Origin: an uncultured Bacteroidales bacterium | GTDB taxonomy: Bacteria; Bacteroidota; Bacteroidia; Bacteroidales; VadinHA17 | DNA length: 64,000 bases | Direction of reading: 5' to 3' | Assembly (NCBI GenBank): GCA_963696535.1 | Contig: CAVOKP010000017.1 | Location: 20,440-84,439 of the forward strand | Shown: in pieces, positions 52,793 to 55,919 of the stretch | How positions within the stretch are numbered: the first letter of the stretch is position 1 | Layout: every line of letters starts with the position of its first letter | Translations under genes and position numbers: made by a program | The notes under the pieces: model-generated | Database searches by the model: none | The model's input: the letters and a program-made list of their open reading frames with translations, nothing else | Told to the model about the DNA's origin: nothing

Positions 52793-52988
52793 GATGATGA
52801 AGATTTGCGGGTGCAAGTTTAATCATTTCCCGGAGACCGGCGCCAGAAAAAAAATAACTTCATTCAGAGCGGAACAAAGTGCAGCGAAGAATCTCTTGCC
52901 CAATGCAAGAATTATTCTATAAGAATATATAATACAATAAATATATATTATCTTTGTTATATATAAGATACAATTATATACTATTTAT

Positions 52989-53335
52989 ATGATATCAAAT
53001 CAACTTTACAGCGGGTCGCTCAAGACAATAGTTCTTAAACTGTTAAAAGAAGAGGGTCCTATGCATGGATATGCAATAACAAATAAGGTGGAAGAACTGA
53101 CAAAGGGTAAGATCACTCTTACTTACGGTGCTCTTTATCCGATACTTCACAAGCTTGAAAGCGAGAAAGTTCTTGTCACGACAAGTGAAGTATTACAATA
53201 ACAGGGTAAGGATCTACTATGCGCTTACTCCTTCGGGACAAGCAGTTGTTGCTGAAAAGAATAAATGAGCTTAAAGAATTTATTGAATCGCTTCAGCTTA
53301 TAATTGAACCCAAAGCCGGACTAAATTATGCCTGA
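52989..53335 (+). pseudogene. PadR-family transcriptional regulator interrupted by two frameshifts
   Basis: The winged helix is LKLLKEEGPMHGYAITNKVEELTKGKITLTYGALYPILHKLESEKVL. The continuation YYNNRVRIYYALTPSGQAVVAEKNK and then INELKEFIESLQLIIEPKAGLNYA* lie in two other frames. The stop overlaps the next gene by 8 nt. Confidence 0.7.
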
Positions 53336-54764
53336 ACTTTCGATCCAGAATATTGAAAGGATTTCCCGCGATGTAAGAAAACAGGAGATAGTATTCTCTC
53401 ATCTTCTGGATGAGCTGATCGACCATATCTGCTGCGATGTCGAAAATGAAATGCAGGACGGGCTTACCTTCCTTGAAGCCTACAGTAAAGTAAGGCATAA
53501 AATAGGTTCGCGGCGAATTAAAGAGATACAGGAAGAGACACTTTATGCAGTCGACACTAAATACAGACATATGAAAAACACGATGAAAATTTCAGGCATT
53601 GCCGGTACAGTTTTGCTTGGCTTTGGAGCCTTATTCAAGATCCAGCACTGGCCTCTTGCCGGTGTTATGACGACCCTCGGGGCTGTAACCCTGGCATTGG
53701 TATTCATGCCCTCGGCACTCGGAGTACTCTGGAAAGAGACTCACAGCAGGAAGAAACTCTTCCTTTTCGTCTCGGCATTTCTGGCAGGGATGTGTTTTAT
53801 ACTTGGTACATTGTTCAAGATACAGCACTGGAATGGTGCAGGATTGATTCTCCTTCTTGCAGGATTCTTTGGATTGTTTTTCTTTGTGCCTGCATTACTT
53901 GTACAGAAACTTCAGGATCAGGATAATAAAGCCAAAAAGCCGGTTTATATACTGGCTGCTGCTGGAGCGATCTGTTATGGTGCAGGGATGTTATTTAAAA
54001 TCCAGCACTGGCCGGGCGCAGCGGTCCTAATGGTCTTTGGACTTGTAATTCTCTGCCTGATAGCTTTACCTTGGTACACACGGATCAGCTGGAAGGAGGA
54101 GGGTCATATAACTTCAAAATTCCTTTATATAATTATAGGCCTGCTTCTGATCCTTCTGCCCGGATCACTGATCAACATGAACCTTTCGCAATCTTTTGAA
54201 GAGGGTTTTTATTCACATCAGGATCAGCAAAAGGCTCTGTACAGCTATTTACACCGAAATACCAGTTCCATGATGATCCGTTACCACGATTCACTTAACT
54301 ACCCTGTAATGGAACTGATTCACGAAAGAACCAAAGAGCTGGTTAATTATATCGGGGGTATTGAATCTGAAATGATTAGTGTGGCAGAAGGGGAGCCGGG
54401 AGCACCTGTTATTCTCAGCAATGAGATCATTCAGTCTGAAACAGGACCAGCTATAAATTTTCATGAAATTTCAAGACCGTTTCATACCCAGCCTGTAAAA
54501 GACTTTCTTCTGCCTGGCGCCAGGGCAAGGGAGGAGCTTAATGCACTTCTGACTGATTATAAAGCATTTATTTTAGGATTGATGTCCGGTGAAGAGCTGA
54601 GAAGTATTTCAGGACTTCTTGATCTATCACTTTATTTACCGGATGAGCTGCCTGAGACCAGTAATATTTCAATGATGTCGGGGCTCCATTCGCTTGTGCT
54701 GCTGAAAAACGGGCTTCTGACCGTTGAGTCCGACGCATTGAAAGCTATTGCAAGCCACAACTAA
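53328..54764 (+). CDS. PadR-associated membrane protein: cytoplasmic prefix, three 60-aa GldL/PorL-like two-helix modules, a GldM/PorM-like anchor helix, and a ~190-aa extracytoplasmic domain
   Basis: LFKIQHW(P/N)GA occurs at residues 102, 162 and 222, an exact 60-aa period. The last helix is followed by LINMNLSQSF (compare GldM ALNVSKEV). Confidence 0.75.
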   Translation: MPELSIQNIERISRDVRKQEIVFSHLLDELIDHICCDVENEMQDGLTFLEAYSKVRHKIGSRRIKEIQEETLYAVDTKYRHMKNTMKISGIAGTVLLGFGALFKIQHWPLAGVMTTLGAVTLALVFMPSALGVLWKETHSRKKLFLFVSAFLAGMCFILGTLFKIQHWNGAGLILLLAGFFGLFFFVPALLVQKLQDQDNKAKKPVYILAAAGAICYGAGMLFKIQHWPGAAVLMVFGLVILCLIALPWYTRISWKEEGHITSKFLYIIIGLLLILLPGSLINMNLSQSFEEGFYSHQDQQKALYSYLHRNTSSMMIRYHDSLNYPVMELIHERTKELVNYIGGIESEMISVAEGEPGAPVILSNEIIQSETGPAINFHEISRPFHTQPVKDFLLPGARAREELNALLTDYKAFILGLMSGEELRSISGLLDLSLYLPDELPETSNISMMSGLHSLVLLKNGLLTVESDALKAIASHN

Positions 54765-54783
54765 TCAATTAATACACAAAGTC

Positions 54784-55749
54784 ATGAAGCAAAAGATTTA
54801 TATATTCGGTGTGGTTACTGCCATAATAATTTTTACAGGCACTCTGTTTAAATTAAACCACTGGCCTGGCGCAGGTTATCTGTTGATAATAGGTATTGCA
54901 ACGCTTGTTCTGGGCTTTCTGCCCCTGGCACTTAGAGACCATTACAAGGCAAGCGGAACCAGGCAAAACTTACTGCTGCATATTGTTACCTGGCTCACAT
55001 GCTTTGTAGTATTCACATCGATGCTGTTCAAGATTCAGCATTGGCCTTATGCTGGCATCCTGTTGACAATAGCAATTCCTTTCCCGTATGTTGTTTTTCT
55101 TCCTGTTTTTATTTCAACGATGTCAAAGAACAAGAATTTCAATATTTACAATACAGTATTTGTTCTTATGTTGCTTGCTGCCAGTTCAGTTCTGTCGGCC
55201 TTGCTTGCTTTAAATGTATCAGCGGAAAGGATCAGGGACAGCTATAACCTTTCAAGGCAGTACAATCAGGTTGGAAAGGTCCTCAACCAGCTCCCTGCAT
55301 ATGACTCAGAATCCGGGATTGCCCTGAAGATTGATGAAGTCCTAAAGGTTGCGGAGGATTATAAGAACCTGATACTTAAGTTTGAAGGTATCTCTCCCGG
55401 ACAATATACTTACGCGGGAGATTTACTGAGACCCGATTTACGGGGTGCAGCGCTGCAGGGATTATCTTCTACCGGTAATGCAAAACTTGCGGAAAAACTA
55501 GACAACAGCCTGAAGGATCTCATTAAGGAAATTGAAAATACTCCGGGATGTGATGACCTGACAAAAGCAATCCCGGTAATTCTTGATCTTAACCCGCAGG
55601 ATGGAGATGAGCCTTTATTGATTTGGTCTAATATTACTAATACCCTTTCGTGGACCCTTATTTATCTCGACGGTCTTGAGACCAACCTGAAAATGATAAA
55701 GGCAACGGCTGTGGGACCCAGAGATGCCGCCCCTCACGGGGCTTTCTAG
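54784..55749 (+). CDS. paralogous membrane protein: two GldL/PorL-like modules, a GldM/PorM-like anchor, and an extracytoplasmic domain
   Basis: LFKLNHWPGA at residue 21 and LFKIQHWPYA at residue 81 (60-aa period), then LLALNVSAERI. The start is set at ATG 54784. The last ~8 codons are read from a hairpin repeat. Confidence 0.75.
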   Translation: MKQKIYIFGVVTAIIIFTGTLFKLNHWPGAGYLLIIGIATLVLGFLPLALRDHYKASGTRQNLLLHIVTWLTCFVVFTSMLFKIQHWPYAGILLTIAIPFPYVVFLPVFISTMSKNKNFNIYNTVFVLMLLAASSVLSALLALNVSAERIRDSYNLSRQYNQVGKVLNQLPAYDSESGIALKIDEVLKVAEDYKNLILKFEGISPGQYTYAGDLLRPDLRGAALQGLSSTGNAKLAEKLDNSLKDLIKEIENTPGCDDLTKAIPVILDLNPQDGDEPLLIWSNITNTLSWTLIYLDGLETNLKMIKATAVGPRDAAPHGAF

Positions 55750-55919
55750 TGGTTAGTGAACAGTCAGGGACGGGCTTCGCCCATCCCTAAAATCTTAATA
55801 GCCTACGGCCTATAAAACAGCTTTATGATTCCTCAAGGCCCTTAGGGTCTTGATACTATTGGGCGGAGCATCGCCCCCACGAGAATCAACCATACAATAC
55901 CATAAGCCCCGGTAGGGGC
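55729..55919. repeat. array of six short GC-stem hairpins spaced about 27-45 nt apart
   Basis: gcccc-tcac-ggggc (55729), agggacgggc-ttc-gcccatccct (55766), atagcc-tac-ggcctat (55798), caaggccc-tta-gggtcttg (55834), gggcg-gagcat-cgccc (55861), gcccc-ggta-ggggc (55906). Confidence 0.7.

Follow-up and report, generated by a model that had tools for sequence, protein, structure and literature searches.

A PadR-linked pair of Bacteroidales membrane proteins composed of GldL- and GldM-type motor parts, a probable membrane signalling device

We analyzed a 64,000-nt stretch of DNA from an uncultured Bacteroidales bacterium (GenBank assembly GCA_963696535.1, contig CAVOKP010000017.1, positions 20,440 to 84,439; hereafter the window, with all coordinates counted from its first nucleotide) and found in it a three-gene operon for a PadR repressor and two inner-membrane proteins, designated A and B, which are composed of both subunits of the GldLM/PorLM motor. 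Protein A (53328-54764, plus strand, 478 aa) has three GldL-type transmembrane (TM) hairpins and protein B (54784-55749, plus strand, 321 aa) has two, and in each protein the hairpins are followed by one GldM-type TM helix and a GldM-like periplasmic domain. We consider it probable, with moderate confidence, that the locus codes for a membrane signalling device of the HAAS-PadR type that was assembled from GldLM motor parts and serves as a receptor, not as a motor. A preliminary description of this DNA had placed the two adjacent genes beside a padR gene at these same coordinates, in agreement with the listing of open reading frames (ORFs).

GldL-type hairpins and GldM-type domains in proteins A and B

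The three hairpins of protein A lie in tandem at residues 90-269 (53595-54134; single modules at 53595-53774, 53775-53954 and 53955-54134, plus strand), and the two of protein B, which lacks an N-terminal prefix, at residues 9-128 (54808-54987 and 54988-55167, plus strand; 54784-55167 with the protein start included). The motif LFK(I/L)xHW occurs at residues 102, 162 and 222 of A and at residues 21 and 81 of B, with a period of exactly 60 residues, and the Pfam model GldL_N matched three stretches of protein A (E-value 5.5e-17, 62.1 bits) and two of protein B (E-value 5e-12, 46.3 bits), so that motif positions and profile matches agree on the repeated two-helix modules of the preliminary description. 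Since these scores are well over the GldL_N cutoff of 24 bits, the likeness to GldL is not a matter of chance. A hidden Markov model (HMM) of the module, built from the family itself, gave domain E-values of 1e-23 to 1e-27 for the modules of protein A and matched the protein B hairpins too. When the PDB was searched with the sequences and profiles of both proteins, only GldL/PorL chains were retrieved (7sau_C, 7sat_C, 6ys8_G and 7sax_C), as the suggested relationship to GldL/PorL would lead one to expect, and the profile searches returned no GldM/PorM chain at E≤10. The NCBIfam equivalog model of GldL (TIGR03513) scored 42.1 bits with protein A and 30.0 bits with protein B, both under its cutoff of 68.3 bits. 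The cytoplasmic domain of GldL is missing from both proteins, in which the hairpins succeed each other directly at the 60-aa period. Because the GldL_N cutoff was passed and the equivalog cutoff was missed, we regard the modules as GldL hairpins and the whole proteins as something other than GldL. The topology of both proteins has the K/R-rich linkers inside, the HWPxAG loops outside and the C-terminal domains in the periplasm.

Residue conservation was followed in 492 modules, three each from 104 A-type and two each from 90 B-type proteins, using GldL numbering from an alignment with 6ys8_G. The column of Lys27 was occupied by Lys in all 492 modules and that of His30 by His in 489. At the position of Glu49, in the second helix, we found Leu, Gly, Pro, Phe, Ser or Ala and not a single Asp or Glu in the 492 modules, and the Tyr13 column contained Gly, Ala, Thr, Ser, Ile or Val and never Tyr. 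In the GldLM motor, Lys27 and His30 of the GldL periplasmic loop mediate the contact with the periplasmic domain of GldM, and Glu49 and Tyr13 form, together with GldM Arg9 and Tyr17, the proton-coupling core (bioRxiv 10.1101/2020.05.11.089193). With Lys27 and His30 kept and Glu49 and Tyr13 gone, the family has retained the residues of the L-M interface and lost those of energy coupling. The earlier remark that the second helices of the two proteins lack an acidic residue like the Glu of GldL therefore applies throughout this set. Each of the five module positions was conserved across species (65-93% identity), and the five were only 25-40% alike among one another; they are non-equivalent units.

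Downstream of the hairpins, protein A has a seventh TM helix that bears LINMNLSQS at its periplasmic end and is followed by a helical domain (residues 270-478, 54135-54764, plus strand), and protein B has a fifth TM helix that ends in LLALNVSAE and is likewise followed by a periplasmic domain (residues 129-321, 55168-55749, plus strand). The additional helix and its motif can be read directly from both sequences, as the preliminary description had it, and the length after the motif is approximately 190 aa in A and 170 aa in B. Both proteins were modeled with AlphaFold (mean predicted local distance difference test (pLDDT) score of 78 for A and 75 for B). In a Foldseek search of the PDB, the five best matches of the protein A model were all TM+D1 regions (TM helix and first domain) of GldM/PorM, namely 7sau_A (E-value 6.9e-3, probability 1.0), 7sax_B and 6ey0_A/D/B, with a target template-modelling score (TM-score) of 0.67-0.72 for the 6ey0 chains (0.72 for 6ey0_A), and every match outside GldM/PorM had a probability of 0.25 or less. 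The protein B model had its top matches in 7sau_A/B, 7sax_A/B, 7sat_A/B, 6ey0 and 7cmg. Thus GldM/PorM TM+D1 chains came first for both monomers and were almost the sole high-probability matches.

Relatives of the two proteins provided a second line of evidence. All 10 distant family members that were scanned had two or three copies of GldL_N fused to a Pfam GldM_1st domain above threshold (E-values of 3e-28 to 3e-6, mostly across nearly the whole model). The HMM of the protein A domain matched three GldM_1st-containing relatives (P0406, P0474 and P0468) and that of the protein B domain matched one of the same (P0468). In hhalign comparisons with the Pfam-verified GldM_1st domains of the relatives, the protein A domain reached a probability of 95.2% (E-value 2.5e-8, 189 columns) and the protein B domain 89.3% (E-value 2e-6), and none of 40 block-shuffled controls attained the observed score. 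The C-terminal domains of A and B showed no detectable similarity when aligned to each other directly (0.9%) and are linked through intermediates only. The structural matches, the relatives that bear GldM_1st and the bridging profile matches together support the assignment of both C-terminal parts as divergent GldM_1st domains, and with it the GldM/PorM-like anchor and D1 domain proposed at the outset. Both proteins stop after the D1-like domain, so that GldM domains 2-4 are missing; a canonical GldM found in a metagenome locus (L127) has the first to the fourth. In GldM, domains D2-D4 reach the outer membrane and the GldKN ring. With regard to GldM Arg9 and Tyr17, the profile alignments start at or past the Tyr17 position and the TM helix of A and B is some 5-8 residues longer; in the protein B sequence we saw no Arg at the matching distance from LNVS.

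The PadR gene, the protein A prefix and the operon

In this assembly, two insertions of 1 nt each, near 53192-53195 and near 53259-53266, break the gene for a PadR-family winged-helix regulator (52989-53335, plus strand) that precedes protein A. As it stands, the window contains a PadR ORF of 70 aa (52989-53201) whose stop lies 126 nt before the ATG of protein A. These 70 residues match Pfam PadR with an E-value of 2.9e-14, matches to the PadR profile are spread over three frames of the window, and the best NCBIfam match of this PadR is padR_acidobact. In three reference relatives, L001, L002 and L003 (83%, 67% and 94% identical in protein A, respectively), PadR is intact with 114 aa and its stop overlaps the ATG of protein A by 8 nt (ATGCCTGA). 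The preliminary description had given this 8-nt overlap for the window as well; it holds in the relatives but not literally in the window, where the two +1 frameshifts had been read through. When aligned with each of the three relatives, the window shows one extra base at each of the two sites, and both bases are missing in all Logan contigs from four independent freshwater-sediment metagenomes that are 95-99% identical to the window. Because the relatives and the four metagenome contigs agree, we consider the two insertions a probable assembly error. The metagenome contigs come from close relatives and from a different sample than the window, and for this reason the gene may instead be a strain-specific pseudogene.

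Protein A begins with a cytoplasmic prefix (residues 1-89, 53328-53594, plus strand), the prefix of about 90 aa that had been recognized earlier, which forms three helices in the AlphaFold model (residues 6-18, 24-43 and 48-75). In six of six members, its sole match was NCBIfam perm_prefix_1 (NF038403), always in the same register and below the cutoff (E-values of 7e-4 to 0.05, 13-19 bits). Domains of the perm_prefix_1 type mark FtsX-type permeases next to padR genes (NF038403 / TIGR03433). A computational study has described the HAAS-PadR dyad, in which a standalone PadR is proposed to be held or set free by a short helical domain at the N-terminus of a sensor with several TM helices (PMC11237479). 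Among the loci examined, the prefix was found only on the gene directly after padR, and it was missing from B and from a form fused to a SpoIIE domain (see below). Some relatives have GPR or FGPGG in their prefixes at the position of the HAAS GxP motif. We interpret the protein A prefix as a probable PadR-coupling domain of the HAAS, or permease-prefix, type.

Genes A and B are in different reading frames. The ATG of protein B lies 20 nt past the stop of protein A, a spacing that is the same in relatives, and this start is also that of the gene caller's own product (P0123); a longer ORF from a TTG at 54748 would give 333 aa. Upstream of padR, a promoter-like element on the plus strand (52949-52967) consists of a Bacteroidota -7 box (TAnnTTTG) with a conserved A/T core after it (TATCTTTGTTATATATAAG) and is a candidate promoter/operator of the operon. 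Among 70 related loci, 57 contained the form TAnnTTTG[CT][AT]ATA, with a median distance of 40 nt to the PadR ATG downstream of it, and the fuller form of the conserved element reads TAnnTTTG and then (C/T)(A/T)ATATA(T/C)AAG. We also considered the inverted repeat ATATAA-N8-TTATAT as PadR operator and rejected it; it lacks robust conservation, with a perfect copy in just seven of the 70 loci. At the other end of the operon, a consensus scan detected a G+C hairpin with a T-rich tail (GCCCCTCACGGGGC TTTCTAGTGG; 55729-55752, plus strand), which overlaps the protein B stop codon and is likely the terminator. It is followed in the window by a GH97 gene on the opposite strand, and the other neighbors are housekeeping genes. 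A profile scan detected no further GldL or GldM matches within the 64-kb window, so that, as far as this stretch shows, the operon indeed lies outside any gldKLMN/type IX secretion system (T9SS) locus, and there was no gldKLMN linkage in any of approximately 160 related loci that we examined.

Distribution and architectural variants

At least 341 species-level Bacteroidales genomes contain the subfamily with the padR-A-B triad. We surveyed the loci of the best 80 of these, all from uncultured Bacteroidales, and a three-hairpin A gene was located directly 5' of a two-hairpin B gene in all 80 loci having upstream DNA; a few of the 80 A genes were split by frame breaks or cut at contig ends. A padR gene immediately preceded the module genes in 69 of 72 genome loci. 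The wider family, collected in an exhaustive search with a one-module profile, includes 2,442 representative clusters at 50% identity. No single chain with five hairpins was found among the best 150 of these 2,442 representatives, in which there was one apparent four-module fragment. In the source databases, some homologs carry the names "hypothetical", "DMT family transporter", "PQ loop repeat" or "eIF-2 beta", and there is no domain evidence for the names "DMT", "PQ loop" or "eIF-2 beta".

Additional architectures were identified in a metagenome scan that was seeded with a distant subfamily and in which downstream genes were counted only at loci with enough sequence. One-hairpin GldL genes (22, for which upstream padR was not counted) were followed by a full GldM gene in 22 of 22 cases. 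Genes coding for a prefix and three hairpins numbered 33, with padR directly upstream in 31, and the next gene was a two-hairpin gene in 19 of 19. A third type combined a prefix, two hairpins and GldM_1st; 16 of its 19 members had padR directly upstream, and none of 12 was followed by another module gene. Overall, 47 of 52 prefix-bearing genes in the metagenome set had padR upstream. The single-gene type, with padR and a prefix-two hairpins-GldM_1st protein without a partner, is represented by L084, L093, L099, L105, L113, L134, L140 and others. Locus L085 (4968-7067) contained a 699-aa protein in which two GldL_N hairpins and GldM_1st were joined, with an extra TM segment, to a SpoIIE/PP2C phosphatase domain, and this fusion points to a role of the GldL_N and GldM_1st unit as a signalling input module. 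On one 238-kb contig (Ga0206129_10000027), a padR gene with a prefix-two hairpins-GldM_1st gene (L084, 4334-6029) was found together with a canonical gldL-gldM pair coding for GldM domains 1-4 (L127, 4977-7523), and therefore the fusion system and the canonical motor can coexist in one organism. A MacAB-TolC-like efflux operon (OEP-MFP-ABC-FtsX) was downstream of the triad in 29 of 61 related loci, for example in L002 (8861-13413) and L001 (9202-13440).

Proposed function, alternative explanations and relation to known systems

Since the proton-coupling residues are lost, a sensor is the most likely function of proteins A and B. The preliminary description had cautioned that a sensor or anchor is as likely as a motor, a caution that fits the coupling to PadR and the prefix as well as the missing Glu49 and Tyr13. 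In the signalling device that we favor, A and B would be joined by way of their GldM-like helices and their D1-like domains, the latter seated on the loops of the hairpins. A signal from the periplasm or the membrane, for which envelope-active or toxic compounds are our best guess, would alter the tilt or packing of the D1-like domains, and this change would travel via the helix bundle to the protein A prefix, which would hold or release PadR in the way proposed for HAAS-PadR dyads. PadR would then de-repress its own operon, whose promoter with the element at 52949 is one candidate target, and in many relatives also the MacAB-TolC-type efflux operon next to it, the other candidate target.

Several observations weigh against this proposal. 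If the PadR frameshifts are real, the regulator is dead in this genome. The perm_prefix_1 scores of the prefixes fall under the curated cutoff of 30 bits, a Pfam scan of the same prefixes gave inconsistent noise only and no HAAS match, and the prefix in the window reads G-S-R (KIGSRR) at the position of the HAAS GxP motif. Pfam GldM_1st (PF12081) did not match A or B itself at E≤1, and Foldseek gave weak E-values, from 7e-3 to about 1. When the two proteins were compared by hhalign directly with a GldM TM+D1 alignment assembled from real sequences, protein B reached 46.7% and protein A 0.7%, but a block-shuffle control showed that the score of B was due almost wholly to a motif of approximately 12 aa (ALLALNVSAE / AMLAMNVSKE), and we dropped this comparison as proof of domain homology. 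The efflux operon is missing in the window and in half of the relatives, and both the ligand and the contact between A and B are parts of the mechanism that we infer.

A more specific form of the receptor is suggested by the numbers of its parts. Together, A and B have 3+2 hairpins and 1+1 GldM-like helices, which is the count of GldL5:GldM2. It is possible, and we put this forward tentatively, that the two proteins form a covalently concatenated pseudo-5:2 complex, in which two GldM-like helices are caged by five non-equivalent hairpins and the Lys/His loops carry the D1-like domains, that is, a rotary-motor scaffold that was frozen and exapted as a receptor releasing PadR upon tilt. Such a complex would fit the strict pairing of A and B, the conservation of each of the five module types and the spacing of exactly 60 residues, and the GldL copies of the GldLM motor already differ from one another in their contacts (bioRxiv 10.1101/2020.05.11.089193). 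The existence of single-gene systems with two hairpins weakens the idea: five hairpins would not be required in the prefix-two hairpins-GldM_1st systems, which stand alone without a downstream partner (0 of 12), or in the SpoIIE fusion, which has two hairpins. The lack of any five-hairpin chain among the best 150 representatives also counts against a need for five.

It is unlikely, in our view, that PadR is an ordinary ligand-controlled autoregulator whose operon simply carries A and B along as regulated cargo, so that the two proteins would serve the envelope in a structural or protective way and make no signalling contact with PadR. PadR operons often include membrane proteins without an assigned function, and the prefix reaches perm_prefix_1 below threshold only and has no Pfam HAAS match, as such a cargo role would allow. 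However, the prefix is confined to the gene directly after padR, with its 8-nt overlap, in the three-hairpin as well as the two-hairpin types and is absent from B and the SpoIIE form, and a PadR of 114 aa would leave little room for a ligand domain. Distinctly unlikely is a role as accessories of a genuine T9SS or gliding motor, in which A and B would use their conserved Lys/His loops and D1-like domains to mix with, titrate or monitor GldL and GldM (PorL and PorM) and would report the status of the motor or of secretion to PadR. The retained L-M interface residues, as well as the contig shared by the fusion system (L084) and the canonical gldL-gldM pair (L127), are consistent with this role, but neither the window nor the approximately 160 related loci show linkage to gldKLMN, and A and B already provide both partners to each other.

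The same 3+2 hairpins and 1+1 GldM-like helices would suit a working ion-driven 5:2 motor that energizes some envelope process. We regard this as very improbable: every second helix lacks acidic residues, Tyr13 is lost, GldM D2-D4 are missing, there are no GldK or GldN partners nearby and single-gene two-hairpin systems exist. Moreover, the hairpins and the GldM-like helix are in one polypeptide, a covalent tether that excludes free rotation. Small-molecule transporters of the DMT or PQ-loop families, to which the seven TM helices of A and five of B and the names of some homologs might point, are disfavored to the point of being hardly credible, because neither Pfam nor NCBIfam gave a DMT or PQ-loop match and GldL_N hairpins plus the GldM-type helix account for all TM segments.

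The GldLM/PorLM complex is one of the few classes of ion-driven motors and is not known to drive processes other than gliding and type IX secretion. In the family described here, its two subunits have been fused, have lost the proton path and have become connected to transcription factors (PadR) or phosphatases (SpoIIE), a possible case of a motor scaffold turned receptor and a natural experiment on which L-M interface contacts matter without energy coupling. No 5:2 machine is so far known to act as a sensor, and the pseudo-5:2 arrangement, should it be true, would be the first. The family would also add an abundant new input module, from environmental and gut-related Bacteroidales, to the computationally proposed HAAS-PadR scheme, and it shows that database names like "DMT transporter" and "PQ-loop" are misleading. 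In our literature search, no paper was found that links GldL or GldM to PadR or describes GldL-GldM fusions, in line with the initial impression that such a fusion family had no published description.

Compared with the GldLM/PorLM motor (GldL5:GldM2; PDB 6YS8, 7SAU, 7SAX, 7SAT and 6EY0), proteins A and B share the TM hairpin, the GALFKIxH loop, whose Lys and His are invariant and contact GldM, one TM helix of the GldM type that ends in (L/M)N(V/L)S and is followed by a helical D1 domain, the topology, and the number of five hairpins and two helices per A+B pair. They differ in that these parts are concatenated into two polypeptides, that Glu49 and Tyr13 of GldL, the GldL cytoplasmic domain and GldM D2-D4 are missing, that gldK and gldN are not neighbors and that the genes are coupled to padR. 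With MotAB, ExbBD and TolQR, which are also 5:2 ion-driven machines, the two proteins may share a plan of five outer units caging two central helices with periplasmic domains; there is no sequence relation, and in those machines the central helix bears a conserved acidic residue and the subunits are separate and rotate freely. The likeness to HAAS-PadR dyads includes a small standalone PadR immediately 5' of, and overlapping, the gene for a membrane protein whose short cytoplasmic N-terminus is modeled as three helices, as well as the consistent weak perm_prefix_1 matches of the prefix and padR_acidobact as the best match of PadR. The partners listed for HAAS are PspC, LiaF-TM, FtsX, FtsW and VanZ, whereas the sensor part here is GldL_N(3)-GldM_1st; this system also has an obligatory second paralog without a prefix, and its prefix scores are sub-threshold. 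What appears to be new is thus a dyad of the HAAS-PadR type whose sensor would be a disarmed GldLM unit, made of domains that Pfam models already recognize.

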